Part shown: one piece after another, positions 2,656 through 20,691 of the stretch | How positions within the stretch are numbered: the first letter of the stretch is position 1 | Layout of the letters: every line of letters starts with the position of its first letter | NCBI GenBank assembly: GCA_041747735.1 | Contig: JBGTEP010000106.1 | Location: forward strand, 2,980 to 66,979 | Origin: Chryseolinea sp. | GTDB lineage: Bacteria; Bacteroidota; Bacteroidia; Cytophagales; Cyclobacteriaceae | DNA length: 64,000 bases | Direction: 5' to 3' | Notes under the pieces: model-generated | Databases searched by the model: none | What the model saw: the letters and a program-made list of their open reading frames with translations, nothing else | Told to the model about the DNA's origin: nothing | Translations under genes and position numbers: made by a program

Positions 2656-3294
2656 ATGCAGGAAAAATTGAAAATTCTACTGGCTGATGACCATCGCATG
2701 TTTATAGATGGAGTTAATTTACTCTTAATGGCTAACGCACAATATGACGTGGTATGCCTGTGCGCAAATGGAAGGGAAGCCGTATCTTTTGCCGAAGTCA
2801 ACCCGGTAGACGTGGCGCTCTTGGATGTGAACATGCCGGACATGGACGGTGCAGAGACAACAAAGGCTTTAAAGCAATTGCAACCGAATATAAAAGTGAT
2901 TATAATCACAATGCATCGAGAAATAGGTATAATCCGAAAAATGATGCGTGCGGGTGCAGATAGTTATTTATTAAAGGAGACTTCTGCTCATGAATTGTAT
3001 GCTGCCATTAACAAAGTAGTAGAAAATGAGCAATATTTAAGTCCGCTAATATCAGAAGCGGTGATCCAGGCACTTAAGGCTAATGGAAATGAAAACATAA
3101 CAAAGTTGACACTTAGAGAAACAGAAGTTCTCAAGCTGATATCAAACGGTTCCACTACATCAGAGATCGCTGTTCACATAGGCTTGAGCGTTAATACTAT
3201 TGAAACACACCGTAGAAACATGCTGTCGAAGCTTGGCTTGAAAAATACCGCGCAACTGGTTAGATACTCCGTAGAGCAAGGATTACTTGAATAA
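2656..3294 (+). CDS. NarL/LuxR-family response regulator
   Basis: ILLADDH, ALLDVNMPDMDG receiver; C-terminal LTLRETEVLKLI...TIETHRRNMLSKLG LuxR HTH. Confidence 0.95.
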   Translation: MQEKLKILLADDHRMFIDGVNLLLMANAQYDVVCLCANGREAVSFAEVNPVDVALLDVNMPDMDGAETTKALKQLQPNIKVIIITMHREIGIIRKMMRAGADSYLLKETSAHELYAAINKVVENEQYLSPLISEAVIQALKANGNENITKLTLRETEVLKLISNGSTTSEIAVHIGLSVNTIETHRRNMLSKLGLKNTAQLVRYSVEQGLLE

Positions 3295-3464
3295 AGTTAA
3301 ACTCGATCTAAACGAAAAGAATTTCAAGTAGGACCAAGCGGGAAATTTTGCGGCGTTTAGCTCTTTATCATGCGGAAAGCGTTGGAGATAGCGAATGCTT
3401 AGACCAGGGAAATTTAAAGAGGAATATCGACACATTAGCAGGCACCCTAATATGATACCAATGG

Positions 3465-3611
3465 CTCCAAGTTGCCATCGAATTTTCTATCGTACACCCT
3501 ACTGGTGGGTCGCCTTTCCAATACTGCTTCCAATCCCTCCTCCACAAACCGTTTCTTGACTCTATCTATTGTCCGCATACCAACTTTAAGCACTTTACTT
3601 ATTTGCTCGTT
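3465..3611 (-). mobile_element. IS630-family transposase N-terminal HTH remnant
   Basis: Minus strand reads NEQISKVLKVGMRTIDRVKKRFVEEGLEAVLERRPTSRVYDRKFDGNLE and then diverges and stops. No start codon and no DDE domain. Confidence 0.75.
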
Positions 3612-4463
3612 AGGGCTACAGGCAAACTACGCAAGACACGACGCTTGTCGGCATTGAAATCATACCTTGGCTAGTAAACTTCTTTGCCGCCGGAAGTGTC
3701 AGTCAGTGGGTCAGTCGATGAAGATGTTCGATCCACTGGCGCAATGACAAAATTAAAGAAATGAAGAATTGGCGTTTAGGAATCAACACGCGGATTAGCT
3801 CTGATAATTTGTACGATGAATATTGAGGTGTTAGGAATCGCGAGGAGATTTTCTTTATGTTTTAGTTGAACTCATTTTAATAGCTACGCACTCCAGGTAC
3901 TCACGCGAGATGGCACTATGATCAATGTTGCCCATGGTAAAATTATTATTCTATAAAATAAACAAACTAAAGTTCAAGTTCGGAAGTGGTGTCGTCTACG
4001 GAAGTGACGTTGAAAAAGGCGAAAATGATCTTGGAAACAAAAGAGATGACACATCACAATCCTTTCGTCTTGTTTCGACGACAGTGCATTTAAGTTTGAA
4101 TTATTTTTTCGGACAACGCGTGTATTTCAAGTTGAGCTATCAAAACTGATTTGAGTTTTTTTATTGAAGGCCCGCCATACTATTCAATTTCCAAAAGCCG
4201 GAGAACATGTCAGTTGTGTTTATAATTCTTGTCAATTTGGCTGATTAGGCCATAAAAAATGGGAACTCAGTTCAAAATTTGGTAAATTAGTAATTCAGGA
4301 ATTTTATATCTCCGTAGCAAGCCTTCAGTCTATTTCGGGGAATATCTGTTCAGATCTTTGAGTGCACTCAAGGTCCGCGTTATCGGGCTTTTCCAAGGCC
4401 GTCAAGCGAAGCAGTAATTTCATGGTTCATTTCGATCGGTGATGGCACGATCATTTTATCCAA

Positions 4464-4493
4464 TTAACTAATTATTACTTAACTAATTATTAC
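4464..4493 (+). repeat. Perfect 15-bp tandem duplication (TTAACTAATTATTAC)x2 just upstream of the gabT ATG
   Basis: Read directly: 4464-4478 and 4479-4493. Confidence 0.9.
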
Positions 4494-4495
4494 GA

Positions 4496-5833
4496 ATGGC
4501 TAAAACAACTACTCTGGATCGGCATCTATTATCATTTGAAAAAACTCAGCAACTCTTAGAAAGAAGGAGAGCAGTAGTAGCAAATGGCGTCAGCGTATTC
4601 GTTCCCTCGTCGGCGATGGAATCCAATGGGAGTACGATCATTGATGCGGATGGGAATCACCTGATTGATTTTGGCGGTGGGATTGGTGTGCTTAATGCCG
4701 GTCATTGTCCACCGACGGTTGTGGAAGCAATCCAAAGACAAGCCGGAAAACTTATTCATGCCTGTTTCAACATCTCAACATACATACCTTACCTGGAGCT
4801 ATGTGAAAAGTTGGTTGACCTATTTCCACATGGAGAGCAAACGAAAGCGATGTTAACCAATACAGGAGCGGAATCGGTCGAGAATGCAATAAAAATTGCA
4901 AGACAATCCACGAAGAGATCTGCGATACTTTGCTTCAGCGATGCATTTCATGGGCGCACCATGATGGCGATGACGCTAACCTCGAAAGTAGCTTACAAAA
5001 CAGACTGTGGGCCATTTGCTCCCGAAGTATACCGGCTTCCATTTCCGAATTATTATCACGATGGAAGTGGAATGTCCCAGGATGATTTTGCAGAGAAGGA
5101 ATTGAATAAACTATATGATTCAACGCATACACATGTTGATCCAAATTCAGTTGCCGCCATTATAATTGAGCTTGTTCAGGGTGAAGGAGGTTTCAACATC
5201 GCACCAAAAAGATACGTAGAGGGTCTTCGCAAATTCTGCGATGAATTCGGCATCATGTTGATTTTTGATGAAGTACAGACTGGTTTCTGCCGAACGGGAA
5301 GGTGGGCATCGTATCAGCACTATGGCGTCACCCCGGATATTTCCACGTGGGCGAAATCAATGGGTTCGGGAATGCCCATTGGTGCCGTGATCGGAAAGTC
5401 GGAAGTTATGGATGCCGCAGCCGTTGGGACCATAGGTGGAACCTATCCGGGAAATCCGGTTTGTTGTGCAGCGGCAATAGCCACGCTTAATTATATGGAG
5501 AACATAGACCTGAACGACAAGGCACAGCATATAAGTAAAATTATACACGGCCGTTTCTTAGCCCTGAAAGAAAAATGTCCGGCTATAGGAGACGTGCGAG
5601 GGCTGGGAGCCATGCAGGCGATTGAATTTGTAAAAGATAACGATCCATCACAGCCCGATGCTGAGACAGCAGCCCAGCTAGCCCGGGCGTGCCTGAGGCG
5701 CGGGTTGATTTTATTGAGCGCCGGAACAAACAAAAACGTTATTCGCGTGCTTAGCCCGCTGGTTATTTCAGAGGCATTGCTGAACGAAGGACTAAATATT
5801 ATTGAAGAGGAACTATTAAAACTAACTAACTAA
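4496..5833 (+). CDS. gabT: 4-aminobutyrate aminotransferase-like class III PLP aminotransferase
   Basis: DFGGGIGVLNAGH, TGAESVENA, FHGRT, QGEGG, FDEVQTGF, AKS (PLP Lys), GGTYPGNP. Confidence 0.85.
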   Translation: MAKTTTLDRHLLSFEKTQQLLERRRAVVANGVSVFVPSSAMESNGSTIIDADGNHLIDFGGGIGVLNAGHCPPTVVEAIQRQAGKLIHACFNISTYIPYLELCEKLVDLFPHGEQTKAMLTNTGAESVENAIKIARQSTKRSAILCFSDAFHGRTMMAMTLTSKVAYKTDCGPFAPEVYRLPFPNYYHDGSGMSQDDFAEKELNKLYDSTHTHVDPNSVAAIIIELVQGEGGFNIAPKRYVEGLRKFCDEFGIMLIFDEVQTGFCRTGRWASYQHYGVTPDISTWAKSMGSGMPIGAVIGKSEVMDAAAVGTIGGTYPGNPVCCAAAIATLNYMENIDLNDKAQHISKIIHGRFLALKEKCPAIGDVRGLGAMQAIEFVKDNDPSQPDAETAAQLARACLRRGLILLSAGTNKNVIRVLSPLVISEALLNEGLNIIEEELLKLTN

Positions 5834-5835
5834 GT

Positions 5836-6765
5836 ATGACGCCATTCTCCATAGCCGGAATTCAAATGCATGTTTCAGCAAGCCACACCAATGTACAGGT
5901 GATGAAACACAAAATCGACGTCATCATGTCCGTGTACCCTTGGGTTCAAATGGTCATGTTCAGTGAGCTTTGCCCCTTCGGCCCGCTAACATTTAACGCG
6001 CAGGAATTCCCGAATCAAACTGAAACCGACTTCTGTTTAATCGCGAAGCATTACGGGATCTGGCTTATCCCCGGAACAATGTTCCAGAAAAAGGAACAGG
6101 CTATCTATAACACTGCCACTGTCATTAATCCACAAGGGGAAATTGTTGGCAGGTATAACAAAATGTTTCCATTCTATCCCTATGAGGTAGGAGTTGCGGG
6201 CGGTGATGAATTTCTGATTTTCGACGTTCCGAAAGTCGGCAGGTTCGGGATTACGATCTGCTACGACATGTGGTTTCCTGAAACATCAAGGACACTTGCC
6301 GTGAACGGTGTGGAAGTTATTCTCCATCCCACACTTACCGCAACTATTGATCGGGACATTGAACTTGCATTGGTTCAGGCAACGGCCGCCACCAATCAAT
6401 GTTTCATTTTCGACATAAATGGATTGGGTGATGGTGGCACAGGCAGATCAATCGTGTGTGGACCAGATGGAAGAGTGCTGCACCAGGCCAGTACGGGTGA
6501 AGAACTGATTCCTATTGAAATTGATATGGAGCGCGTGCGACGCAGCCGCGAAATGGGTGTGCTGAGGTTGGGACAACCACTAAAAAGCTTTCGTGAAAGA
6601 AAAGTTCGGTTTGACATCTATCAGGATGATGCTCAAATACCATACCTCCATACGCTGGGAAAACTGAACAAGCCAACTCGCTTCGAGCAGATGAAAGAGG
6701 CACTGCAGTACAACGAACCTCCGTCACTTTCTTCAACACAGTCAAATAAATTTAAAAACAGTTGA
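5836..6765 (+). CDS. Carbon-nitrogen hydrolase (nitrilase superfamily amidase)
   Basis: E-K-C triad motifs FSE, YNKMFP, ICYDMWFPE. Confidence 0.9.
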   Translation: MTPFSIAGIQMHVSASHTNVQVMKHKIDVIMSVYPWVQMVMFSELCPFGPLTFNAQEFPNQTETDFCLIAKHYGIWLIPGTMFQKKEQAIYNTATVINPQGEIVGRYNKMFPFYPYEVGVAGGDEFLIFDVPKVGRFGITICYDMWFPETSRTLAVNGVEVILHPTLTATIDRDIELALVQATAATNQCFIFDINGLGDGGTGRSIVCGPDGRVLHQASTGEELIPIEIDMERVRRSREMGVLRLGQPLKSFRERKVRFDIYQDDAQIPYLHTLGKLNKPTRFEQMKEALQYNEPPSLSSTQSNKFKNS

Positions 6766-6782
6766 ATCTAACCGGTTGAAAA

Positions 6783-7193
6783 ATGAAAACATTAGTAAAA
6801 CACGTGAGCAAAGAAAAGTCATTAAACTTGAAACACTATGTTAATTGGTTTGAGCTACCTGCCTACAATTTTGAACGGGCTGTATCCTTTTACAATGCTA
6901 TCTACAGCATTAAGATGGAGACAACGGAAACAAACGGATATACTATGGGATTTTTTCCAGCGAAAGGCGGAATCGGTGGAGCGGTAGTTCAGGGAGAAGG
7001 ATGCGCGCCCAGCACAACCGGTCCATTAATTTATCTTAATGGAGGCAAGGATCTGAATGTTGTGCTCTCGAGGATCGAGGCCGCAGGTGGACGAGTCATT
7101 TTGCCAAAAACATTAATAAACGAGGCCGTTGGTCATTTTGCGCTTTTTATGGATACTGAGGGAAATCGGCTTGCCTTGCACTCAAAGAACTAG
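6783..7193 (+). CDS. VOC/glyoxalase family protein
   Basis: VNWFELPA...RAVSFY...GGRVILPKT...FMDTEGNRLALHS. Confidence 0.9.
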   Translation: MKTLVKHVSKEKSLNLKHYVNWFELPAYNFERAVSFYNAIYSIKMETTETNGYTMGFFPAKGGIGGAVVQGEGCAPSTTGPLIYLNGGKDLNVVLSRIEAAGGRVILPKTLINEAVGHFALFMDTEGNRLALHSKN

Positions 7194-7221
7194 AAGACCA
7201 TTCGGCCAATGACAATAAACA

Positions 7222-10026
7222 ATGCGGACAAAAAATAACGTTATGGACGGTACTCAACTAAAGGGACTCTATTATAATATCGCTCAGTTTCGTACGGAAA
7301 TTTGGGCTAACCTTAAATTAAAGGCTTACTCGCTTGCTAAGAATAAGAACAAACAAGAGCAAGAAGTGGAGAAAGCAGAGATACTGACGTTAATTAAGGA
7401 CATGCGGGAGGTTGAGCAATACTATGCATTTCCCGGAAATGAGATTTTGGAAACACTTAAAGGATTCATCAAACATGATGAATTTCAGATTCTTCGTAAT
7501 TCAATTACAGAGATTTTAAGATTGCTTGTGAGCGAGGGTTACCGGCAGGATCCTGAGACTCTTTCATTTTCATCCTTTCTAAAGAGGAAAGAAGGTAAAG
7601 GAACCCAAACACCAAAGTCAAGGAAAAGATATTTTGAGGTTTTATTTGTTGATAATCTTTCCGCCAATGATGAACAGCTAATCACCAGGAAGCCGCAGGA
7701 AGTGCGCGATCCCACGGAGCATTTTATTTATCAATTGGTGCATATTAAATCATATCAGGATTGCTTGATCGCATTGATCGCCAATCCTAACATACAAGCG
7801 TGTATCGTCCGAAGCGAAATTCCATTCAAGTCAAAAAACGCTAAAGATACTCTCGGCGCATTTACTTCGGATATCATAAATGACCAATACGAGGATCACC
7901 CCGAGTATGAGTTGGGTATTTTACTGGGCGACGCCATTCGAAAACTGCGTCCTGAAGTCGACATCTATTATGTCACAGACAAAGGAGTACAAAATGTGCA
8001 AGACAACTCATTGAAGAACTTCCAGCGGGTTTTTTACAGAAAAGAAGATTCACAAGAGCTGTATTTAAGTATCATAAGGGGAATTAAAGATCGCTACGAA
8101 ACTCCGTTTTATACGGCATTGAAAGAGTATAGCCAGAAACCAACGGGTGTCTTTCACGCAATGCCAATATCCCGTGGGAATTCAATTTTCAAATCCAATT
8201 GGATTGATGACTTCGGGGAATTTTACGGACGGAACTTGTTTCTCGCAGAAACTTCCTCAACAACTGGTGGCCTTGATTCATTGCTTCAACCTACCGGCCC
8301 TTTAAAGAAGGCCCAGGAACTGGCATCGAAAGCTTTTGGTTCCAGGCGCACTTACTTCGCAACGAATGGAACATCGACGTCTAACAAAATTGTATTGCAA
8401 GCATTGGTAGAACCGGAAGACGTGGTGCTGATAGATCGGGATTGCCATAAGTCACATCACTACGGCATGGTGCTTTCGGGTGCATACGTCACGTACCTGG
8501 ACTCGTATCCTTTACAAAAGTATTCCATGTATGGTGCTGTCCCGTTGGCCTCGATTAAGGAAAGACTGCTAGTGCTTAAGAAGGCCGGCCGGTTGGATCG
8601 GGTCAAAATGCTGCTGCTAACGAATTGTACATTTGACGGACTGGTTTATAACGTTGAACTCGTTATGGAAGAAGTGCTTGCCATAAAACCGGACATGATT
8701 TTTTTATGGGATGAAGCATGGTTTGCATTCGCTGCATTTGCACCAACCTATCGCAAGCGAACAGCAATGCACGTAGCCAATAAGCTGTTCAAAAAGTACA
8801 AGACTGAAGAATACAAGGAAGAGTACAAAAGACACCTCGCCGTCATTAAGAAAAAAGATACGGAGTCTTTACCATCGATGCCAGATCCGGACCTGGTGAA
8901 GATTAGGGTATACGCCACTCAGTCAACCCACAAGACGCTATCATCGCTTCGACAAGGTTCAATGATTCATATTTATGACGAAGAATTTGAGAGGAAGGCA
9001 GAAACTTCATTCCACGAAGCCTATATGACCCATACTTCGACTTCGGCAAACTATCAAATACTTGCATCTCTTGATATTGGAAGACGACAGGTTTCATTCG
9101 AGGGATATGAGCTTGTTGAAAAAAGTGTTGAGATGGCGATGATTTTGCGTGCAAAGATCAATGACCATCCAAAGCTGAAGAAGTATTTCAAGGTACTTAC
9201 CATCGCTGACTTAATCCCTGACCGACACCGTCAGTCAGGACTTTCAGAATATTATCGTCCGGGCTTTGGCTGGCAACGATTAGAAGAAGCATGGGACAAA
9301 GATGAGTTTGTTCTGGATCCGACTAAGATAAACCTTCATATCGGGAGAACAGGGATGGATGGAGATACCTTCAAGAACGAGTATCTGATGGACCAGTTCA
9401 ATATTCAGGTGAATAAGACCTCGCGCAATTCGGTGTTATTTATGACGAATATAGGGACCACAAGAAGTTCTGTGACCTATCTGATCAGCACTCTCCTAAA
9501 AATTTCCGAACAAATTGATGCTCGGTTTGATGCTCTCAACAATGAAGAGCACAGGATAATGCAGAACAAAATTTATTCACTAACGGAGGAAGCGCCGTCG
9601 CTGCCTGATTTCAGCTACTTCCATGATTCATTCCGTGCCGTAGCCGGCATTCCGGGTGGGCGAATGCGTGAGGCCTACTTCCTTGCCTACAAGGAAACAA
9701 AATGTGAATACGTCAAACTCTCCGAGTGTAATAAAATAATGCTGGAAGGAAGGATGCTTGTGAGTGCTGCATTTGTTATTCCATATCCGCCGGGCTTCCC
9801 GGTTCTTGTTCCAGGCCAGGTAATGACAAAAGAAATTCTTGATTTTCTTCAGGCACTTGATGTAAAAGAAATTCATGGTTACCGCCCGGATCTCGGCTTG
9901 CGCATTTTTACAGACGCCGCGCTCAACAGGCAGCAGTCGGGCTCAGGTTTAAGAGGTGCGACTGGAATGATGGGAGCACTCGGGAACGGTAACAGAAAGA
10001 GTAAAGTTGTTATCACCAAATCCTGA
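7222..10026 (+). CDS. Large fold-type-I PLP amino-acid decarboxylase (Orn/Lys/Arg decarboxylase class I, with N-terminal receiver-like wing)
   Basis: GGLDSLLQP, TNGTSTSNK, DRDCHKSHH, WDEAW, QSTHKT (PLP Lys), HTSTS, PYPPGFP; 934 aa. Confidence 0.9.
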   Translation: MRTKNNVMDGTQLKGLYYNIAQFRTEIWANLKLKAYSLAKNKNKQEQEVEKAEILTLIKDMREVEQYYAFPGNEILETLKGFIKHDEFQILRNSITEILRLLVSEGYRQDPETLSFSSFLKRKEGKGTQTPKSRKRYFEVLFVDNLSANDEQLITRKPQEVRDPTEHFIYQLVHIKSYQDCLIALIANPNIQACIVRSEIPFKSKNAKDTLGAFTSDIINDQYEDHPEYELGILLGDAIRKLRPEVDIYYVTDKGVQNVQDNSLKNFQRVFYRKEDSQELYLSIIRGIKDRYETPFYTALKEYSQKPTGVFHAMPISRGNSIFKSNWIDDFGEFYGRNLFLAETSSTTGGLDSLLQPTGPLKKAQELASKAFGSRRTYFATNGTSTSNKIVLQALVEPEDVVLIDRDCHKSHHYGMVLSGAYVTYLDSYPLQKYSMYGAVPLASIKERLLVLKKAGRLDRVKMLLLTNCTFDGLVYNVELVMEEVLAIKPDMIFLWDEAWFAFAAFAPTYRKRTAMHVANKLFKKYKTEEYKEEYKRHLAVIKKKDTESLPSMPDPDLVKIRVYATQSTHKTLSSLRQGSMIHIYDEEFERKAETSFHEAYMTHTSTSANYQILASLDIGRRQVSFEGYELVEKSVEMAMILRAKINDHPKLKKYFKVLTIADLIPDRHRQSGLSEYYRPGFGWQRLEEAWDKDEFVLDPTKINLHIGRTGMDGDTFKNEYLMDQFNIQVNKTSRNSVLFMTNIGTTRSSVTYLISTLLKISEQIDARFDALNNEEHRIMQNKIYSLTEEAPSLPDFSYFHDSFRAVAGIPGGRMREAYFLAYKETKCEYVKLSECNKIMLEGRMLVSAAFVIPYPPGFPVLVPGQVMTKEILDFLQALDVKEIHGYRPDLGLRIFTDAALNRQQSGSGLRGATGMMGALGNGNRKSKVVITKS

Positions 10027-10028
10027 AG

Positions 10029-11471
10029 ATGCAAGCGAACCAACCGAAACGACCCGAACTAAAAAGAGCGATCAGCAAAGCTGGATTTTTCTGCCTTGCA
10101 TTTGGTGCTATGATTGGGGTAGGCTGGGTTACCGCGATGGGGCCATGGCTTCGAACAGCAGGTCCTCTTGGTGCAGCAATTGCCTTCGCTATCGGAGGCC
10201 TGCTTATGTTGTTCATTGGCTTCTGCTACGCTGAAGTTACAGCCATGCTTCCTGTATCAGGAGGGGAAGTAGCCTATGCCTACAAAGCCTTTGGCAGCAG
10301 GCACTCTTTCTTAGTCGGATGGTTTCTTGCGTTCGGTTATATATCTGTTTCAGCGTTTGAGGCAATATCTGTCGGGAAAATTCTTAGCTATCTGTTCCCG
10401 TTTGTGGATCGGTGGCCGCTCTATTCAATTAATGGCGACACCATCTTTGGAACGCATTTGCTACTTGCTCTCTTTTTTGTTTCAGTGATCACCTACGTAA
10501 ACTATACTGGTGTTCGGAATTCGATGCGATTTCAAATATACCTGACTATAGTTTTTCTCCTTATAGTTTTGTGTGTTGCAATAGTAGGTCTTGTACAAGG
10601 AAAAATCGCTAACCTTCAACCGCTCTTTGTTGGGAACTCCTCCCCGGATATTGCGGCTGGCATAACGAGTGTGATCGTTACAGTTCCATTCTGGCTCGTA
10701 GGATTTGATACAATACCACAAGGGGCGGAAGAGGCCAAGGAAACAGTTTCTCACCGGACGATCGGCATCTTGATTTTAGTCTCAATAATTGCCGCAGTGC
10801 TGTTTTACATTTTGTTGATATTCAGCGCATCGATGGTGACGAGTTGGTCTTCATTATCGGGATCAGAATTATTTACAGCGAGTGCTTTTGAAATTGCTTT
10901 TGAATCCGATATCCTGGTAACTGGAATTTTAATTGCCATTATCATCGGACTTCTCACAAGTTGGAATGGTTTTTTCTTGGCAGGATCACGGGTGCTTTTT
11001 GCTATGGGTCGTGGTAAAATAGTTGCCCCTTCGCTTGGTGAATCTCACGCGAAATACGAAACACCATATAATGCGGTGATTTTTAGTGGCGTGATCACAC
11101 TGCTTTCCACATTGCTTGGCCGTGGGGCTATGATCGCATTTGTCAACGTTGGGTCTTTGTGTATCGCAGGCGCATTTCTTGGAGTCTCATTTTCGTACCT
11201 GCGTTTGAGAAAATCTTTCCCCGATCAACTGCGTCCCTATAAGGCGCCAGGAGGAAAACGGACAGGATACATTTCTATTGCTGGCTCAATATTGATCTTA
11301 CTTGCCATTACACTGCCCGGAAGTCCCGCCGCTTTGAAGTGGCCAATGGAGTGGGCCATTTTTTCGACTGTGTGTTTTTTGGGAGCAATTCTATGGATTG
11401 GTTCAAAATCAAGTCGCAGCGCGACTTCAAGCCAGGACAGGGACTATCTTATTTTAGAAAATTTCAATTAA
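10029..11471 (+). CDS. APC-family amino acid/polyamine permease
   Basis: GAMIGVGW, YAELxxxxPxxGG-like YAEVTAMLPVSGG, GFDTIPQGAEE; about 12 TM helices. Confidence 0.9.
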   Translation: MQANQPKRPELKRAISKAGFFCLAFGAMIGVGWVTAMGPWLRTAGPLGAAIAFAIGGLLMLFIGFCYAEVTAMLPVSGGEVAYAYKAFGSRHSFLVGWFLAFGYISVSAFEAISVGKILSYLFPFVDRWPLYSINGDTIFGTHLLLALFFVSVITYVNYTGVRNSMRFQIYLTIVFLLIVLCVAIVGLVQGKIANLQPLFVGNSSPDIAAGITSVIVTVPFWLVGFDTIPQGAEEAKETVSHRTIGILILVSIIAAVLFYILLIFSASMVTSWSSLSGSELFTASAFEIAFESDILVTGILIAIIIGLLTSWNGFFLAGSRVLFAMGRGKIVAPSLGESHAKYETPYNAVIFSGVITLLSTLLGRGAMIAFVNVGSLCIAGAFLGVSFSYLRLRKSFPDQLRPYKAPGGKRTGYISIAGSILILLAITLPGSPAALKWPMEWAIFSTVCFLGAILWIGSKSSRSATSSQDRDYLILENFN

Positions 11472-11487
11472 CAAACCCCATTTTACA

Positions 11488-13062
11488 ATGAATTCAACAC
11501 AAAGTAAAGAAAATAGCAGTCCGGCAATAAAGTCTGCTGCTGTTGCCGTTTCCGAGAGAAGAAATACCGGAACAGTCAGAAAAATGACATCTAAAAAGAA
11601 GAATACAAAGGTACTGAATGGGATTCCAGACATAAGAAGATTCTTTTACAGAAATGAAATACCGATATACTTTGTGAGTGCTACCAATTTCAATCTGCTT
11701 GGTGCCGACGAATGGATTAAAGGTTTCAAGTTTATCTGCTATATAGAATGCTTCGATGGGTTGCACCCGAACGTCTTTTCACCGAAGGAAGAAATAGCCC
11801 ACGATGAATTTAAAAGTATAGAAGACATTAACAATTACCTGCTCGAGCACAAAGAGGTGGTAGACTATCTAAAGGAACGAGGTGGAAAAGGAAAAGCATT
11901 GTTCCTGATGTTTGACGAGCGTACCGAGGAATTAGCGAAGCAACTTGGATTAGAAGTATGTTTTCCCTCCGCTGAGATGAGAACATTTATGGATAATAAA
12001 GTAAATACAAACCGAATCGCTGAGAAAGCCGGGGTTCCTTGTGTGCCGTATATTTTATCTAATGTTATGAGTTATGAACACCTGGTTTCGATCAGTAAAA
12101 AGAAACTCGGTACCGACCTTGTCATACAAACTCCTTTTGGTGACTCTGGGCACACGACTTTTTTTATTTCCAACCAGGAGGAATGGGAGAAGCATGCAGA
12201 TGAAATTATCGGGGAAAAAGAGGTGAAGATCATGAAACGTATTAACTGCCGCGGTTCTGCGATAGAGGCGTGCGTTACGAGACATGGTACTATCGTGGCT
12301 CCGTTAATGACAGAGCTAGTAGGATTCAAAGAACTTACACCGTACAAGGGAGGGTGGTGTGGAAATGAAATCTATGCTGACGCTTTCACACCCGAGATCA
12401 GAAAAAAGGCGCAGGAGTATACGCAGCTTTTCGGCAACCAGCTAAGGGACGAGGGTTATAAAGGTTATTTTGAACTTGACTTTCTTATCGACCTGGATGA
12501 TCAGCAGATTTACCTCGGTGAATTGAATCCCAGGATAACAGGCGCCAGTTCTATTACCAACCATGCGGTATTTGCTTTGTCAGATATGCCTATGCTGTTG
12601 TTTCATATGATGGAGTGGATGGATCAACCTTACAAGCTAAATGTCAAGGCACTTAACAGCCGTTGGTTCAAACCGGAAAACATTGATTCGTGGGGACAGC
12701 TTGTTATTAAACATACCGGAAAAAATATACAAGTGATAGCGGAAGCTCCGCGCTCCGGAATTTATAAAATGAACGAGGACGGCACGATTAAATTCTCAAG
12801 AATGGACACACACCGAAGGGCCGTGGAGACGGAGAAGGAAGCGTTCTTCCTTCGAATCAGCCGCACCGATGATTATTATTATGAGGGTGCTGACCTGGGC
12901 ATACTGGTTATGCGTGGACGCCTGATGACTGATGATTTTACGCTAAACCCAAGAGCGAAGAAGTGGATAAAGGCGATCAAGCAGTTATACGCTGCCGTGG
13001 CCTATGTGCCTCAGGCATCTGTTCCGGAAGTAGCTGAGATTGGAGGATTTAAAATGATGTAG
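11488..13062 (+). CDS. ATP-grasp carboxylate-amine ligase of unknown substrate
   Basis: DNKVNTNRIAEKAGVP, QTPFGDSGHTT, FELDFL, GELNPRITG. No biotin carrier gene nearby. Confidence 0.8.
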   Translation: MNSTQSKENSSPAIKSAAVAVSERRNTGTVRKMTSKKKNTKVLNGIPDIRRFFYRNEIPIYFVSATNFNLLGADEWIKGFKFICYIECFDGLHPNVFSPKEEIAHDEFKSIEDINNYLLEHKEVVDYLKERGGKGKALFLMFDERTEELAKQLGLEVCFPSAEMRTFMDNKVNTNRIAEKAGVPCVPYILSNVMSYEHLVSISKKKLGTDLVIQTPFGDSGHTTFFISNQEEWEKHADEIIGEKEVKIMKRINCRGSAIEACVTRHGTIVAPLMTELVGFKELTPYKGGWCGNEIYADAFTPEIRKKAQEYTQLFGNQLRDEGYKGYFELDFLIDLDDQQIYLGELNPRITGASSITNHAVFALSDMPMLLFHMMEWMDQPYKLNVKALNSRWFKPENIDSWGQLVIKHTGKNIQVIAEAPRSGIYKMNEDGTIKFSRMDTHRRAVETEKEAFFLRISRTDDYYYEGADLGILVMRGRLMTDDFTLNPRAKKWIKAIKQLYAAVAYVPQASVPEVAEIGGFKMM

Positions 13063-13066
13063 GCAG

Positions 13067-14056
13067 ATGCTCATCTCTTTCAATTGTATTCAGGAAGATA
13101 AGCCAGGCGAAAAATGGAAAGCCCTGTTTAAAAGAACATGGCGACACTATAAACACTGGTTTTTGTCGGAAGGATACCTGGCGAGGAAAGGATACCTCAC
13201 TTCTGTTAATCAATTGCAAACTTCAATGCCGGAGCTTATGCCAATTTATGAACGACTCGTTGAACTTGTTGGCGGCGGTGATCTCGAAGCCAGATTCCTT
13301 AGCATGTACTCGCCACCTGCGTACATGTCAGCGTGCTCGCAAGTAGCATGGACTCAGGATGGTGCTTCCTTGATAAGAAACTATGACTACAGTCTAAAGA
13401 TGTTCGAGGGAACGATGTTGTATTCCAATTGGTTGCAGCCGGTCGTTGGTGTTACCGATTGTAACTGGGGGCTTCTCGACGGAATGAATGGATCCGGGCT
13501 CGCAGCTTCTTTGACTTTCGGTGGTCGAAAAGTTGTTGGCGAAGGATTTGGGATTCCTCTTATTATGCGATACATCTTAGAAACTTCGCGAACAGTTAAG
13601 GACGCGATAAATGTTTTACATCGTGTCCCGGTTCACATGGCCTACAATGTTACGCTAATCGAACGTTCAGGACTATTCGCAACCGTATTTCTCTCTCCCG
13701 ACAGGCCACCTGTGGTTATCGACGAGCCGGTTGCAACAAACCATCAGACAGAAGTTGAATGGAGTGATTATGCTTCGTTAACCGGAACTATAGAGCGTAA
13801 GCGAGTTCTCGAGGAACTGATCGCATCAACCCGTGAGACTGAAACAAGTGTGCTTGGACATTTTCTGAACCCGCCGCTCTACAACACGAATTTTGAGAAA
13901 TTGTTCGGAACCCTGTACACGGTAATATATCGGTTACATAAACAAGAAGCGGAGGTCATATGGCCCGGAATGGAGATCAAACAGACATTTACATCTTTCG
14001 ATGAAATGTGTTTGGTCCCTTTTACAATCAACATGAACAAAGACCTGGCCCGGTAA
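13067..14056 (+). CDS. C45-family autoproteolytic Ntn-hydrolase/acyltransferase
   Basis: Candidate nucleophile Cys90 (SAC|SQ), IRNYDY, LDGMNGSGLA, ATNHQ. Confidence 0.85.
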   Translation: MLISFNCIQEDKPGEKWKALFKRTWRHYKHWFLSEGYLARKGYLTSVNQLQTSMPELMPIYERLVELVGGGDLEARFLSMYSPPAYMSACSQVAWTQDGASLIRNYDYSLKMFEGTMLYSNWLQPVVGVTDCNWGLLDGMNGSGLAASLTFGGRKVVGEGFGIPLIMRYILETSRTVKDAINVLHRVPVHMAYNVTLIERSGLFATVFLSPDRPPVVIDEPVATNHQTEVEWSDYASLTGTIERKRVLEELIASTRETETSVLGHFLNPPLYNTNFEKLFGTLYTVIYRLHKQEAEVIWPGMEIKQTFTSFDEMCLVPFTINMNKDLAR

Positions 14057-14137
14057 CAAACTGGTTCGGGTAGAAGAGATTCTCTTCTCTTCTTCTCTAC
14101 GTCTAAATAGAAAAATGGAAAGCTAAAATTTTAATTT

Positions 14138-14953
14138 ATGGATGTGTTGATTGAAGTATTTGATAACATAAAGAAAGCGCTCGTTGAAAACGTCGTGGAA
14201 CTCCTTCCAAACCTGGGTCTTTCCCTCATCGTGGTTCTTGTCGGTATTGCGATAGCCTGGATGGCCAGGAGGGTAACGATAAGGCTGATTCTTTATATTG
14301 ATCGGAAAGTCAACGAAAGGTTAAGTGTGCGTTTGTTAAAAATTGATCTACAAAGCGTCGCGAAGGCTTTAGCCAGGGCAATGTTTTGGACGATCATATT
14401 GTTCACAATTGCTGTGATTATCCAAATACTCGGAATGTCAATTCTTACTACGTGGGTCAATGACCTGATTAAATATGTCCCGAATATTCTGGCAGTACTA
14501 CTGATTATTGTTTTTGGAATTGTTTCCGGAAAGCTGGCTGGTGATTTGATTTCATCCGCATCCGCAAGAGCGGGACTGACTACCGGTAACCAACTCGGCA
14601 GGTTAGTTCACATACTTATACTGGTAGTGACTTTTATCATCGCTATTGACCAAATAGGGATTGATATGGAATTTCTAACTAACATACTGACCATTATTGT
14701 GGCTTCATTATTATTTGCGGCTGCACTGGCATTCGGGCTTGGCGCAAACGTTTCAGTTAGTAACATACTCGGATCATATTACCTCCAACAGGTTTACAAG
14801 GAGGGCGATAAGGTCAGAATAAATGACATCGAAGGAATCATCATAAGAGTTACAGCAACAGTTGTTCTGATCGAAACCGAATCCGGCAGGGTTGTCATTC
14901 CATCAAAAGTTTTCAATGAATCGAAGTCTGAACTAATTAAGTCTAACACATGA
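14138..14953 (+). CDS. Small-conductance mechanosensitive channel-like membrane protein (TM-helix repeat/MscS)
   Basis: Multiple TM helices; ALAFGLG...NILGS...GDKVRIND IEG MscS beta-domain. Confidence 0.8.
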   Translation: MDVLIEVFDNIKKALVENVVELLPNLGLSLIVVLVGIAIAWMARRVTIRLILYIDRKVNERLSVRLLKIDLQSVAKALARAMFWTIILFTIAVIIQILGMSILTTWVNDLIKYVPNILAVLLIIVFGIVSGKLAGDLISSASARAGLTTGNQLGRLVHILILVVTFIIAIDQIGIDMEFLTNILTIIVASLLFAAALAFGLGANVSVSNILGSYYLQQVYKEGDKVRINDIEGIIIRVTATVVLIETESGRVVIPSKVFNESKSELIKSNT

Positions 14954-15777
14954 ATTACGACACACTTTTACTTGAGAATTTCGTCAAATATCACACAACC
15001 GAAGCAGCGGTCCTGACTGAGAGTTTGCAAGATTCGGAGGTTGAAAAAGGGTTTAATACTTTACCAACGAAAGTATTACTTGCCCTGTTGAGTCAAATGG
15101 ATCGTTATAAAGTGTTGAAAGGTATCGAAACCTTAGACGAATCAAAGCTTACGGCCCTGTTTGAATCATTTCCAATTTCCGTCGCGAGAATACTGCTTTC
15201 TCAGATGGATGAGCAAAAAAGAAACTTGATTCTCGAAAACATATCTAAGGAGAAAGCAAGATCAATTCGGGTTGTTCTGAGCTATTCAGAAAATGCAGTC
15301 GGCGCCTACATGGATTCCCGTCCCTTCTTTCTCACGGACGACAGCAACGTAGGTGAAGCGATAGAGAAGATAAAAGAAAGCTCACAGGATGCCTTTCAAC
15401 ATCTCCCAATTATAGGACGTGATCAAAAATTGGTGGGCGTTGTCGATGTAAAATCATTGTTAGTTTCGGACAAGGAAAAATCTCTTCACTCCATCATGAT
15501 GGATGCCCCATTCAAAATATTGGCAGAAATGGATATGGAGGTTTTACTGGAACCTGGCGCCTGGGACGATGCATTTGTATCCTTGCCAGTAGTTGATGCC
15601 AGTGGAATATTCTTAGGTGTTTTACAGAGAAAAACGGTCACAAGTTTTGTCCCGTTCAAGAAGGTGCTTAGCAAAGAAGTGGCAGCGGCAAGCTCTGCTT
15701 TAGGTGATTTATACCGGATCGGGTTTCTAAGTATTGTCAGAGGCGCAAATGAAATTGGTTCAAGAAACGCAAAATAA
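14950..15777 (+). CDS. Soluble MgtE N-terminal + CBS-pair protein lacking the membrane domain
   Basis: YSENAVGAYM, CBS motifs (KLVGVVDVKSLL; LPVVDASGIFLG); no hydrophobic C-terminus. Confidence 0.75.
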   Translation: MNYDTLLLENFVKYHTTEAAVLTESLQDSEVEKGFNTLPTKVLLALLSQMDRYKVLKGIETLDESKLTALFESFPISVARILLSQMDEQKRNLILENISKEKARSIRVVLSYSENAVGAYMDSRPFFLTDDSNVGEAIEKIKESSQDAFQHLPIIGRDQKLVGVVDVKSLLVSDKEKSLHSIMMDAPFKILAEMDMEVLLEPGAWDDAFVSLPVVDASGIFLGVLQRKTVTSFVPFKKVLSKEVAAASSALGDLYRIGFLSIVRGANEIGSRNAK

Positions 15778-17096
15778 TGGAAGCTTTAACTCAACATAAA
15801 GAATTCACAACAACGCTATTGGACTATTATTTCAGGAAATATCCTGACGAAGTAGCCGAGTCACTAAATGAATTTCCCACGGATTATCTCGTCGAATGCT
15901 TAAAAGGATACTCGCCCGAGATCTCCCGTGAAATTCTATCAAAACTGTCCAGTCAGTCAGCAACAGAGGTTCTTACCCTCATGGACGAACCATCGTTTGT
16001 AAGTTTGATTTCCGGAATGGATACATACACTGCTGCAATTTTGATATCGCGATTGGAAAAACCGCTCGTGGAAGAAAGGCTCAGGTCGCTTGGTTCTAAA
16101 TTTTCATCCGCAATACGTGCGTTGTTGTCCTATCCACCGGAATCCGCAGCCTTTCTTATGGACACACGGATGAAGTTATTTAGAGAAACTGATTCCGTTA
16201 GCGATGTTCTCAATACGCTGCGTAACCATGGAGACAGAAGCCTGGTGGTTTTATATGTAGTAGACCCGGACGGTAAATTACTCGGAACCGTTCCCATCCA
16301 TGTTATTGCGGTTTCGCCTCCAGGGGAACAGATGGCTAACTTAGTCGGGAAGTCAGTCTTTGTTGAAGCGCTGGCGCCTCGCGAAGAAGTTGTCGAATTA
16401 CTTCAGGACGGTAAGTTAATAAGCCTTCCCGTGGTTGATGTCAACCATAGGATGCTTGGGGTTATTCGATATGATGCGCTTGTCAAAGCTGCTCAACACG
16501 ACGCAACCGAAGACTCCCTCGCCATGTTTGGTGCCGGACGTGAAGAGAAGGCATTGTCAGGTGTTTGGTTTGCGATAAGAAAACGATTGCCCTGGCTTGA
16601 AATAAATCTGGCAACAGCGTTCCTGGCCGCATCGGTCGTAGCACTTTTCGAAGATACTATTGCACGAATAACCGTCCTTGCCGTATTTCTTCCCGTAGTT
16701 GCCGGCCAGTCTGGAAATACAGGTTCTCAAGCACTGGCGGTAACAATCCGCGGTTTGGCATTACGTGAAATACACATTGGTCAATGGTTTAAAGTTGCCC
16801 GAAAGGAAGTATTAGTCGGACTCGTAAATGGTATTGTTATTTCTCTCAGCACAGCTATTATTGTCTTCTTTTGGGCCTCATCGCTTGGATTAGGAGTAGT
16901 GATCGGCGTGTCAATGATCTTTTCTATGGTCATTGCCGGATTTTCGGGAGCTGTGATTCCCATCCTCTTAAAATCGTTTGGACAGGATCCGGCGCAATCA
17001 TCGTCCATCGTATTAACCACAGTAACTGATATCGTTGGCTTTCTAAGTTTTCTCGGACTGGCAAATGTTTTGGGCGACATGTTGGGTGTTGTGTAA
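15777..17096 (+). CDS. mgtE: Magnesium transporter MgtE
   Basis: YPPESAAFLM, CBS pair, KRLPWL, GNTGSQ, DPAQSS...TDIVG. Confidence 0.9.
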   Translation: MEALTQHKEFTTTLLDYYFRKYPDEVAESLNEFPTDYLVECLKGYSPEISREILSKLSSQSATEVLTLMDEPSFVSLISGMDTYTAAILISRLEKPLVEERLRSLGSKFSSAIRALLSYPPESAAFLMDTRMKLFRETDSVSDVLNTLRNHGDRSLVVLYVVDPDGKLLGTVPIHVIAVSPPGEQMANLVGKSVFVEALAPREEVVELLQDGKLISLPVVDVNHRMLGVIRYDALVKAAQHDATEDSLAMFGAGREEKALSGVWFAIRKRLPWLEINLATAFLAASVVALFEDTIARITVLAVFLPVVAGQSGNTGSQALAVTIRGLALREIHIGQWFKVARKEVLVGLVNGIVISLSTAIIVFFWASSLGLGVVIGVSMIFSMVIAGFSGAVIPILLKSFGQDPAQSSSIVLTTVTDIVGFLSFLGLANVLGDMLGVV

Positions 17097-17153
17097 TGAC
17101 CGATTGTCTTTTCGCAAGACTAAACTGAAATTAGGTAAATAATACAAGGTTAT

Positions 17154-18509
17154 ATGAACTTCACAAGCATCAACCCATTCAACGGATCCAGGATAGGCAA
17201 TTATAAAAAACATAATGAAGCGGATGTTCTTAGGATAATAAACAAAGCACAGCAAACTTTTGATAGTTGGCGTAAGGTCTCGGTGAAAGAGCGTGCTGCG
17301 CTTATCTCAGCCGTAGGAGATGCCTTGCGGAAAAATACTGAAAAGTATGCGCGGATGATAACGCAGGAGATGGGAAAACCGATTGCGGAATCACGCGCGG
17401 AAATTAAAAAATGCGCCTGGGTATGTGATTATTATTCAGACCATGCCGAAAAATTGCTCGCTGAAGAAACGATAAAGACGGAGGCATCCTGGAGTTTTGT
17501 GAGACATGATGCTATCGGTTGTGTGTTGGCTATAATGCCATGGAATTTTCCTTTCTGGCAAGTATTTAGATTTGCGGCACCCGCACTTGCGGCAGGTAAT
17601 ACTGCCTTGCTAAAGCATGCACCCAATGTGTTTGGCTGCGCTACTTATATTTCCGATGCTTTCCGGGACGCGGGAATTCCCGATGGAGTATTTCAAAATC
17701 TTTTTATTGACACGGATGCTATTGGCGGCGTCATCGCTGACAAATCAGTGAAAGCGGTTACGCTGACAGGTAGCGAACGGGCAGGGTCTGCTGTGGCTGC
17801 CCTTGCTGGCAAACATCTAAAAAAAACTGTATTGGAATTGGGAGGAAGCAACGCATTCATAGTTCTTGAGGACGCGAATATTGCAGACGCCGTACGAATT
17901 GCTGTGACGTCAAGGATGCAGAACGCAGGACAAAGTTGTATTGCTGCAAAACGATTTTTAGTGGTCGAACAAGTATACGATGATTTTGTCGCGGGATTCA
18001 TATCAGAAGTTAAGAAACTGAAGTCAGGGGATCCCATGAATGAAACTACTCAGCTAGGCCCGCTTGCACGCATTGATCTCGCCAATCAACTACAACGGCA
18101 GGTTCAGGAGTCTGTCAAGGCTGGAGCGGAACTCCTCCTCGGAGGCAACCAGCAAGGTTGTTTTTATGAACCCACCGTTCTGGGAAACGTCACTCCGGGA
18201 ATGCCAGCATTTGACGAAGAGACATTTGGTCCGCTTGCACCAATGATCAAAGTGAGAGACGCAGCGGAAGCAATTAAGTTTTCAGAGATGTCTAGATATG
18301 GATTGGGTGTAACCCTCTTCACTCAAAATAAAAACAACGCCATGGCAATGGCTGAAGAGTTCACGGACGGCGCTTGCTTTGTTAATGAACTGGTTAAATC
18401 CGACCCAAGACTACCCTTTGGAGGGACGAAGTCCTCTGGTTATGGGCGAGAATTATCACGCGACGGCATGATGGAATTCGTGAACAGGAAGACGGTGTAC
18501 ATTAAGTAA
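17154..18509 (+). CDS. gabD: NAD(P)-dependent succinate-semialdehyde dehydrogenase
   Basis: MPWNFPFWQ, LKHA, TGSERAG, LELGGS, QSCIA, EETFGP, PFGGTKSSGYGREL. Confidence 0.85.
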   Translation: MNFTSINPFNGSRIGNYKKHNEADVLRIINKAQQTFDSWRKVSVKERAALISAVGDALRKNTEKYARMITQEMGKPIAESRAEIKKCAWVCDYYSDHAEKLLAEETIKTEASWSFVRHDAIGCVLAIMPWNFPFWQVFRFAAPALAAGNTALLKHAPNVFGCATYISDAFRDAGIPDGVFQNLFIDTDAIGGVIADKSVKAVTLTGSERAGSAVAALAGKHLKKTVLELGGSNAFIVLEDANIADAVRIAVTSRMQNAGQSCIAAKRFLVVEQVYDDFVAGFISEVKKLKSGDPMNETTQLGPLARIDLANQLQRQVQESVKAGAELLLGGNQQGCFYEPTVLGNVTPGMPAFDEETFGPLAPMIKVRDAAEAIKFSEMSRYGLGVTLFTQNKNNAMAMAEEFTDGACFVNELVKSDPRLPFGGTKSSGYGRELSRDGMMEFVNRKTVYIK

Positions 18510-20681: not shown

Positions 20682-20691
20682 GGCTCACAAA

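Follow-up and report, generated by a model that had tools for sequence, protein, structure and literature searches.

The 64,000-nt stretch of Chryseolinea sp. DNA analysed here (hereafter the window) carries at positions 4496–18509 a run of 11 open reading frames (ORFs), all on the + strand. On balance we lean towards reading this locus as a horizontally acquired γ-aminobutyrate (GABA) operon with a ligase-hydrolase branch, to which a lineage-specific permease and Mg2+ channel genes were added. The evidence that carries this reading is a core gene order shared by loci from several phyla, a decarboxylase that closely resembles the L-glutamate decarboxylase Rv2531c of Mycobacterium tuberculosis, an aminotransferase and a dehydrogenase of the types that degrade GABA, and an ATP-grasp ligase whose family appears to include the GABA-trehalose synthetase Rv1722. 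Coordinates are window positions unless another locus is named, and families were assigned by Pfam and NCBIfam profile searches with curated cut-offs.

Results

A core gene order is conserved across phyla

The window proteins were mapped onto 84 loci by tblastn, and all ORFs of 82 loci were clustered all-against-all. The order aminotransferase (AT), C-N hydrolase (CNh), VOC protein, decarboxylase (DC), APC-type permease (APC), ATP-grasp ligase (AGr), C45 hydrolase and aldehyde dehydrogenase (ALDH), with VOC, APC and ALDH as the variable members, is found again and again, in some 80 loci that belong to Bacteroidota, Balneolales and Planctomycetota. It is identical, as AT-CNh-(VOC)-DC-AGr-C45-ALDH, in Rhodohalobacter (locus L001) and in a planctomycete (L002). 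Among the 82 loci, AGr was found in 79, DC in 70, C45 in 64, CNh in 63, AT in 58, VOC in 45, ALDH in 34 and APC in 19; in many cases a gene is absent because the contig ends. Such co-conservation of the core genes far exceeds chance. The families flanking the cluster are lineage-specific, and the flanks of the roughly 80 loci revealed no further conserved partner or regulator, no other family being present in more than nine loci.

The initial annotation had described 11 co-directional genes separated by at most 81 bp, and the ORF coordinates and family assignments bear this out, the intergenic gaps in gene order being 2, 17, 28, 2, 16, 4, 81, −4, −1 and 57 bp. The expectation that these genes would be co-conserved likewise held for the core order. 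It did not hold for the 11 genes as a single unit: the comparison indicates that the conserved module is one of six to eight genes, into which the permease and a trio of MscS/MgtE-type genes were inserted later in particular lineages. Full-text literature searches for the gene combination found no description of the operon, in agreement with the earlier statement that no named pathway covers the whole gene set.

Two loci related to the window deserve mention. On a 2873-bp contig of the same assembly (G000 contig C10, L004) we found the partial tail of a second cluster, comprising AGr, C45 and ALDH genes, in which the ligase is 74% and the C45 protein 45% identical to the window copies; the tail may stem from a second cluster of this genome, or else from contamination of the assembly, which was estimated at 1.84%. 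The closest relative of the window cluster, L110, lies on an ENA metagenome contig, and its GabT gene (L110 positions 705–1847) is broken into three ORFs of 134, 101 and 141 aa, so that either the transaminase is decaying or the assembly contains frameshift errors.

The decarboxylase resembles a mycobacterial glutamate decarboxylase

The best solved relative of the 934-aa decarboxylase is M. tuberculosis Rv2531c (9n0n, 9n0o), to which it aligns over residues 59–913 in one stretch with 803 bits. The OKR_DC_1 match begins only at residue 294, which fits the long-form four-domain architecture of about 930–950 aa, in which an additional N-terminal domain comes ahead of the wing, catalytic and C-terminal domains. 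Genetics, metabolomics and enzymology recently established that Rv2531c, the 'cloaked' long-form enzyme, decarboxylates L-glutamate to supply the GABA shunt; it requires Mg2+, is hysteretic and cooperative, and is inactive on lysine, ornithine and arginine (PNAS 2026, PMC13506015). The same study highlighted residues H405, K406, R576, T606, R718 and N731, with R576 modelled to bind the γ-carboxylate of glutamate, and did not discuss the gene neighbourhoods of Rv2531c (PMC13506015). CryoEM structures of the enzyme (9N0N, 9N0O and 9N0P) come from a structural paper that contains no enzyme assay (PMC12329521).

In the window decarboxylase, H409, K410, the pyridoxal phosphate (PLP) lysine K571, R577, T607, S608 and N731 are invariant in all 67 cluster orthologues; their Rv2531c counterparts, read off the printed alignment, are H405, K406, K570, R576, T606, S607 and N731. 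True lysine, arginine and ornithine decarboxylases (LdcC, AdiA and SpeF) match with at most 208 bits, compared with 803 for Rv2531c. This close homology suggests that the window enzyme converts L-glutamate to GABA in a Mg2+-dependent manner.

The aminotransferase and the aldehyde dehydrogenase would complete a GABA shunt

The aminotransferase matches PF00202 with 392 bits and barely passes the GabT equivalog TIGR00700 (508.6 bits, cut-off 506.65); it falls below the cut-offs of the other GabT models, NF005376 among them. Its orthologue is present in 58 of the 82 loci and is the first gene of the cluster whenever present. The ALDH matches PF00171 with 452 bits. Its best NCBIfam matches are models of NADP-dependent succinate-semialdehyde dehydrogenase (SSADH), and it misses the SSADH equivalog cut-offs (NF006915, 521 against 730 bits; TIGR01780, 340 against 646), so that it is SSADH-like by best match and context only. 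The window ALDH is 60–66% identical to ALDHs encoded directly after AGr or C45 in other clusters.

The ATP-grasp ligase belongs to a family that appears to include GabtS

The ligase scores 778.1 bits against NF005096 (cut-off 684) and contains an ELNPR motif. It has thousands of relatives at 69–91% identity across several phyla, and the ATP-grasp family as a whole comprises about 315 clusters at 50% identity (E < 1e-30). An actinobacterial ligase representative led to P0373, a 'biotin carboxylase' of Mycobacterium barrassiae, which matches NF005096 with 737.6 bits and is 44% identical to the window ligase over its full length. A protein of M. barrassiae is listed as an Rv1722 homologue with E = 2.8e-168 (Table S1, bioRxiv 10.64898/2026.04.15.718621), and this protein and P0373 are not necessarily one and the same. 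Homologue searches for the M. tuberculosis Rv1722 sequence returned only environmental and non-tuberculous relatives. From these matches, NF005096 appears to include Rv1722.

Rv1722 (GabtS), which used to be annotated as a possible (biotin) carboxylase, is an ATP-grasp enzyme that synthesises GABA-trehalose; the purified protein alone, with ATP, yields free GABA-trehalose, a 6'-ester, and its authors state that the route by which GABA-trehalose is degraded is open (bioRxiv 10.64898/2026.04.15.718621). A search for a specific structural relative of the window ligase was unproductive: its AlphaFold model is of medium quality, with a predicted local distance difference test (pLDDT) score of 65, and the Foldseek matches, to PurK, biotin carboxylase and Ddl, reflect only the general ATP-grasp fold.

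After a variable linker of low pLDDT, all 79 cluster ligases end in a C-terminal G-hydrophobic-K tail (window 12990–13062), which reads GGFKMM, GGFKML or GSLTK; actinobacterial ligases end in VGVKSG or DVGVK. The tail motif is itself conserved across phyla.

Families named for trehalose or 3-keto-disaccharides adjoin the cluster in three loci: PF06439, a 3-keto-disaccharide hydrolase family, just downstream of the window operon (18798–20681), and ThuA in Rhodohalobacter (L001, 756–1676) and in a Bacteroidia metagenome-assembled genome (MAG; L059, 6809–7855). The adjacency is of note in that the sole known product of the ligase family is GABA-trehalose; it may be due to chance, since these families are very abundant in these phyla.

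The ligase gene is paired with a hydrolase gene

The C45 gene starts 4 bp after the ligase gene. Its product passes NF040521 (140.8 bits, cut-off 85) and matches PF03417 with 102 bits. All 64 orthologues have Cys90, which follows a Gly in 57 of them and an Ala in 7, at the predicted processing site; the motif R104-N-Y-D107 is invariant in the same 64. The partner of the ligase is a C45 protein in 64 of the 82 loci from Bacteroidota, Planctomycetota and Balneolales, and a β-lactamase-fold hydrolase in four of four actinobacterial loci. Since the partner swaps between C45 and β-lactamase-fold proteins from phylum to phylum, the ligase and the hydrolase encoded directly downstream form the conserved unit in which only the type of hydrolase varies. 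A serine-esterase-type partner fits the mycobacterial trehalose ester, and a Cys N-terminal nucleophile (Ntn) amidase suggests an amide bond in the clusters of C45 type. One actinobacterial locus, from Arthrobacter sp. CJ23 (L111, 2399–10783), encodes an amino-acid permease, an M20 peptidase, a CN-hydrolase, an amine oxidase, an ATP-grasp ligase and a β-lactamase-fold hydrolase; here the association of ligase, hydrolase and CN-hydrolase occurs without a long-form decarboxylase, and the amine oxidase replaces the transaminase.

The CN-hydrolase is always encoded directly after the transaminase, in the window with a gap of 2 bp. None of the 57 orthologues departs from its Glu-Lys-Cys triad (E44, K109 and C142) or from E149. 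It falls below the cut-off of every named NCBIfam equivalog, and its nearest relatives in the PDB (PH0642, an archaeal nitrilase, aliphatic amidases and the Nit2/Nit3 ω-amidases), which are enzymes acting on small amides, reach only about 80 bits. The pairing of a transaminase with an ω-amidase-like protein recalls the MtnE/MtnU and Nit1/Nit2 repair systems and serves as a lead only.

The 136-aa VOC protein, present in 45 loci, has no Pfam match. A profile of 24 orthologues matches 2r6u, 3oxh/Rv0577 and 4pav, and the AlphaFold model (pLDDT 84) matches glyoxalase I and FosX in Foldseek with TM scores of 0.6–0.7. Profile and model confirm the predicted VOC (glyoxalase I) fold.

The permease and the MscS/MgtE trio are lineage-specific

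The permease matches PF13520 and PF00324, and TIGR00909 with 154 bits, below its cut-off. It lies between DC and AGr in only 19 of the 82 loci, all of one Cyclobacteriaceae-like clade, and is absent from L110, the closest relative. Of the trio, the MscS-like protein is just above threshold for PF05552 (31 bits) and PF00924 (22 bits), matches 171-aa minimal MscS structures weakly and is absent from 18 genomes of the same genus. The MgtE_N-CBS protein shares 27% identity with the cytosolic portion of the neighbouring MgtE, and its gene overlaps both neighbours. MgtE itself passes TIGR00400 (240.9 bits, cut-off 232.75) and has the N-domain, CBS and pore architecture (PF03448, PF00571 and PF01769).

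The order MscS-like, MgtE_N-CBS, MgtE is kept in three genomes (G265, G135 and G354) and in L081 and L110, and the trio occurs in about 1% of the sampled Bacteroidota genomes. In L110, which has a ligase 91% identical to that of the window, the trio likewise follows C45. Among the mapped loci it is found in only one other, L081, an unrelated flavobacterial MAG, where it is convergent and lies 1.5 kb after the ALDH gene. By our own estimate, which takes the 1% frequency, a 20-kb window and a genome of about 4.5 Mb, some 0.004 chance adjacencies would be expected in 80 loci, so that the adjacency in L081 is unlikely to be due to chance. The identity of the window ALDH to those directly following AGr or C45 elsewhere indicates that the trio was inserted between C45 and ALDH. 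Canonical MscS genes abut the cluster in L070 (36 bp after ALDH), L024 and L019, and in the planctomycete locus the cluster comes after an MscL gene and a CBS-ClC gene.

Origin and surroundings of the operon

NF005096 was found over its cut-off in one of 25 genomes of the genus, which is the window's own, in none of 16 further genomes of the order and in four of 151 genomes of the family. Upstream, a two-component system (histidine kinase, 740–2629; LuxR-type response regulator, 2656–3294) is separated from the operon by a 1.2-kb stretch (3294–4496) without an ORF longer than 74 aa. It holds a remnant of an IS630-type insertion sequence (IS), a 48-aa winged-HTH ORF that passes HTH_29 narrowly (28.8 bits, cut-off 28.1). 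The patchy occurrence and the IS remnant indicate that the operon is horizontally acquired. Rv1722 ('carboxylase') and Rv2531 ('arginine decarboxylase') both figure in a high-confidence list of genes that the M. tuberculosis lineage gained by horizontal transfer (Veyrier et al. 2009, PMC3087520, Table 2). In environmental bacteria their homologues are neighbouring genes, and the shared listing is suggestive, though no more, of a common origin from a linked pair.

The last ~100 bp before the AT gene are conserved with L110. An Rfam search of the 1.2-kb leader returned no riboswitch or other known RNA at E ≤ 1, and a scan for consensus promoters and terminators gave counts at background level, with only a weak hairpin (14072–14088) in the 81-bp gap before the trio. 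A candidate σ54 promoter, with TGGCAC 53 bp upstream of AT, was rejected, there being no good −12 element and no conservation of the site in 55 other loci. Downstream of the operon, two ORFs on the + strand, one of 627 aa (18798–20681, PF06439) and one of 742 aa (20581–22809, cupredoxin/DUF7133), overlap by 101 bp; the start of the second probably lies further downstream than listed.

Table 1 Features of the window operon and the upstream remnant
Feature	Position	Strand	Matches
Class-III aminotransferase (AT), GabT-type (GABA:2-oxoglutarate transaminase)	4496..5833	+	PF00202, TIGR00700
Nitrilase-superfamily C-N hydrolase (CNh, amidase), substrate not assigned	5836..6765	+	PF00795
Small VOC protein, glyoxalase I fold, 136 aa	6783..7193	+	Profile and fold match
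Long-form four-domain 'KOR-family' PLP decarboxylase (DC), predicted L-glutamate decarboxylase, 934 aa	7222..10026	+	OKR_DC_1, Rv2531c match
APC-superfamily amino-acid permease, CAT/BcaP-like, accessory insert	10029..11471	+	PF13520, PF00324 (AA_permease)
ATP-grasp ligase (AGr), NF005096 'biotin carboxylase', predicted GABA-acceptor ligase	11488..13062	+	NF005096
C45-family self-processing Ntn (Cys) hydrolase/acyltransferase, predicted conjugate hydrolase	13067..14056	+	PF03417, NF040521
Minimal MscS-like membrane channel protein, gene 1 of inserted trio	14138..14953	+	PF05552, PF00924
Pore-less MgtE_N + CBS protein (soluble sensor paralogue), trio gene 2	14950..15777	+	PF03448, PF00571
Full-length MgtE Mg2+ channel, trio gene 3	15777..17096	+	TIGR00400
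Aldehyde dehydrogenase (ALDH), succinate-semialdehyde-dehydrogenase-like	17154..18509	+	PF00171
IS630-type transposase N-terminal remnant	3447..3593	-	HTH_29

Discussion

In the mechanism that we propose, the long-form decarboxylase would turn L-glutamate into GABA with a requirement for Mg2+, and the GabT-type aminotransferase and the SSADH-like ALDH, to judge from their family membership, would carry GABA through succinate semialdehyde to succinate and complete the shunt. The NF005096 ligase would use ATP to couple the carboxyl group of GABA to an acceptor and the C45 Cys-hydrolase would cleave the conjugate again, a pair that would buffer GABA or keep it in store at times when it cannot be oxidised. 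In this clade trehalose is probably not the acceptor, and an amide is the more likely kind of bond. More speculatively, the Nit-like amidase and the VOC protein might handle a side product or a second amide of the conjugation branch. Their context suggests that the APC permease moves glutamate and/or GABA and that the trio provides both decarboxylase and ligase with Mg2+, with the release of solute as a possible further role. A wider proposal is that a GABA conjugate is made and broken in an ATP-driven cycle of wide occurrence, run by the ligase, the C45 hydrolase and the Nit-like amidase that is always linked to them, in many loci together with the VOC protein. The conjugate, probably an amide and not GABA-trehalose, would serve as a stress solute or as a store of nitrogen and carbon. 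We advance this proposal tentatively and regard it as rather doubtful.

The initial annotation had combined the GABA shunt with a polyamine route. Its GABA half, in which GabT and SSADH degrade GABA, is supported by the aminotransferase passing TIGR00700 and by the SSADH models that best match the ALDH; its polyamine half is not supported, the only characterised long-form relative of the decarboxylase being Rv2531c, which acts on L-glutamate and not on lysine, ornithine or arginine (PMC13506015). In such a polyamine route the decarboxylase would make putrescine or cadaverine from ornithine or lysine, the ATP-grasp enzyme would acylate the diamine in the manner of PuuA, the aminotransferase and the ALDH would oxidise the free end, and the C45 protein and CN-hydrolase would release GABA or 5-aminovalerate in the manner of PuuD. 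The Pfam and NCBIfam names of the decarboxylase (Orn/Lys/Arg decarboxylase) speak for it, and ligase, amine oxidation, ALDH and amide hydrolase can be mapped formally onto the logic of Puu. Yet R577, the counterpart of the modelled γ-carboxylate binder R576, is invariant, the characterised relative of the ligase activates GABA, and the similarity to LdcC, AdiA and SpeF is low. As an Rv2531c-type decarboxylase, a GabT-type aminotransferase and an SSADH-like ALDH share one operon, a GABA shunt is the better reading of the pathway, and we consider a polyamine route very unlikely. A Puu-type scheme was set aside as the main model on account of the Rv2531c work and the conserved glutamate-binding residues.

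The tail of the ligase raises a different possibility, namely that the enzyme attaches glutamate or GABA to its own C-terminal lysine or to another protein, as in the LysW/LysX logic, that the decarboxylase, aminotransferase and ALDH act on the tethered substrate, and that the C45 protein and CN-hydrolase release the product. The occurrence of the tail in every cluster ligase, the similar actinobacterial tails, the fit of the low-pLDDT segment to a flexible arm, the unusually high conservation of the ligase and the presence of two amide hydrolases in the cluster would all agree with such a carrier. Against this stand the release of free GABA-trehalose by purified Rv1722 alone, the activity of Rv2531c on free glutamate and the conserved R577, which implies a free γ-carboxylate; moreover, a lysine near the C-terminus is common background in these AT-rich genomes, at 53–62%. 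We give a tethered pathway a slim chance.

A more serious alternative, although still one that we rate as improbable, is that the 11 genes are not one functional unit and that the trio, perhaps with the permease, landed here by chance and serves general Mg2+ homeostasis without any link to GABA. In the Bacteroidota genomes G265, G135 and G354 the trio stands alone in the same order, with neither GABA genes nearby nor an NF005096 gene, and it is for this reason that we regard it as an independent module. It lies near only two independent lineages among the roughly 80 cluster loci, and it is preceded in the window by the 81-bp gap with its weak hairpin. On the other hand, it keeps the orientation of the operon, it separates C45 from an ALDH gene that is adjacent elsewhere, and it has been retained in a second organism (L110). 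The L081 adjacency, being an independent one, and the MscS-family genes abutting the cluster in three other loci also speak against chance. Finally, Mg2+ is required by the long-form decarboxylase, and Mg-ATP is the form of ATP used by ATP-grasp enzymes, so that a putative functional coupling of MgtE to the decarboxylase and the ligase is reasonable; GABA or glutamate might also leave through the MscS-like protein, acting as a release valve. The link to Mg2+ and solute stress drawn in the initial annotation is to this extent plausible.

Several observations weigh against the GABA operon as we read it, the solitary trios just described among them. The identity of the decarboxylase to the characterised Rv2531c is moderate (803 bits over about 850 residues), and the position of Rv2531c R718 is a lysine in all 67 cluster orthologues. 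The ligase is bridged to Rv1722 only through the M. barrassiae homologue, at 44% identity. The closest clusters of Cyclobacteriaceae type are without ALDH, and our model accounts neither for the VOC protein nor for the CN-hydrolase, even though the latter equals the core in conservation. Lastly, OtsA, TreS and TreY are below cut-off in nine of 11 other cluster-carrying genomes; the genome from which the window comes encodes TreS and an OtsA-like protein. We rejected trehalose as a general acceptor: the lack of these genes for its synthesis over cut-off in the nine genomes makes it unlikely in the C45-linked clade, and the partnering of the ligase with a C45 Cys-hydrolase adds to the case that the acceptor of GABA is probably another compound.

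Homologues of Rv2531c and, it appears, of Rv1722, which were described separately (both 2026), are physically linked in one conserved operon of environmental bacteria, along with genes for GabT, a C45 hydrolase, a nitrilase-family amidase and a VOC protein. The pathway had been called uncharacterised, which is now true only in part, homologues of two members having been characterised; the companion statement, that the ligase-hydrolase pair is unassigned, is supported. If the reading of the locus as a GABA operon holds, the operon would supply a candidate type of enzyme for the breakdown of GABA conjugates, the question that the GabtS authors left open, and it predicts that such conjugates exist well beyond mycobacteria, with a different acceptor. 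The annotations 'Orn/Lys/Arg decarboxylase' and 'biotin carboxylase' would then need correction. The joining of the pathway to a Mg2+ channel module agrees with the long-form decarboxylase's unusual need for Mg2+. On the more doubtful proposal of a widespread conjugate cycle, GABA conjugation would not be confined to mycobacteria but would be a general bacterial stress response, wired in this lineage directly to Mg2+ import and a release valve of mechanosensitive type.

Comparison with known systems

The decarboxylase shares with Rv2531c the four-domain architecture (about 935–947 aa), the alignment over residues 59–913, the PLP lysine, the H-K pair and the equivalents of R576, T606, S607 and N731, and both enzymes are associated with GabT and SSADH. 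They differ in that the M. tuberculosis gene stands alone whereas the window gene lies in a conserved operon between VOC and ATP-grasp ligase genes, and in the lysine that replaces R718. The ligase and Rv1722 apparently belong to the same NF005096 family, both genes are directly followed by a hydrolase gene, and both are tied to GABA metabolism. However, the hydrolase has a β-lactamase fold in Actinobacteria and is a C45 (Cys Ntn) protein here, the product there is a trehalose ester whereas the acceptor here is probably another and the bond may be an amide, and the window ligase gene is linked to decarboxylase, GabT, CN-hydrolase and VOC genes.

With the GABA shunt and gab operon of Escherichia coli (GadB/GadC, GabT, GabD and GabP) the window operon would share the sequence from glutamate through GABA and succinate semialdehyde to succinate, a GabT-type aminotransferase, an SSADH-like ALDH and an APC-superfamily permease adjoining the decarboxylase. 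In contrast, the window decarboxylase has the Orn/Lys/Arg-decarboxylase fold and is not of GadB type, the permease is no orthologue of GadC or GabP and shows weak matches only, and the CN-hydrolase, VOC, ATP-grasp and C45 proteins are without counterpart. The E. coli Puu pathway offers a likeness of logic, in that an ATP-dependent ligase (PuuA) conjugates a small amine or ω-amino acid and a hydrolase with a Cys nucleophile (PuuD) releases it. There is no sequence kinship to PuuA, which has a glutamine-synthetase fold, or to PuuD, which has a class-I amidotransferase fold. GABA rather than putrescine is the probable substrate here, and none of the 11 operon proteins matched the families of PuuA, the PuuB oxidase or PuuD in Pfam and NCBIfam. 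The same ligase/hydrolase logic is found in Ebony and Tan of Drosophila, Tan being a C45-family β-alanyl-amine hydrolase.

Like MgtE of the Thermus thermophilus type, the product of the third trio gene combines an N-domain, a pair of CBS domains and a pore domain, and it passes TIGR00400; here, however, the gene lies inside a metabolic operon and comes after genes for a separate pore-less N-domain/CBS paralogue and a minimal MscS-like protein. The locus combines a predicted GABA shunt based on a long-form decarboxylase with an undescribed ligase-hydrolase-amidase branch and, in this lineage, an inserted Mg2+ channel module.

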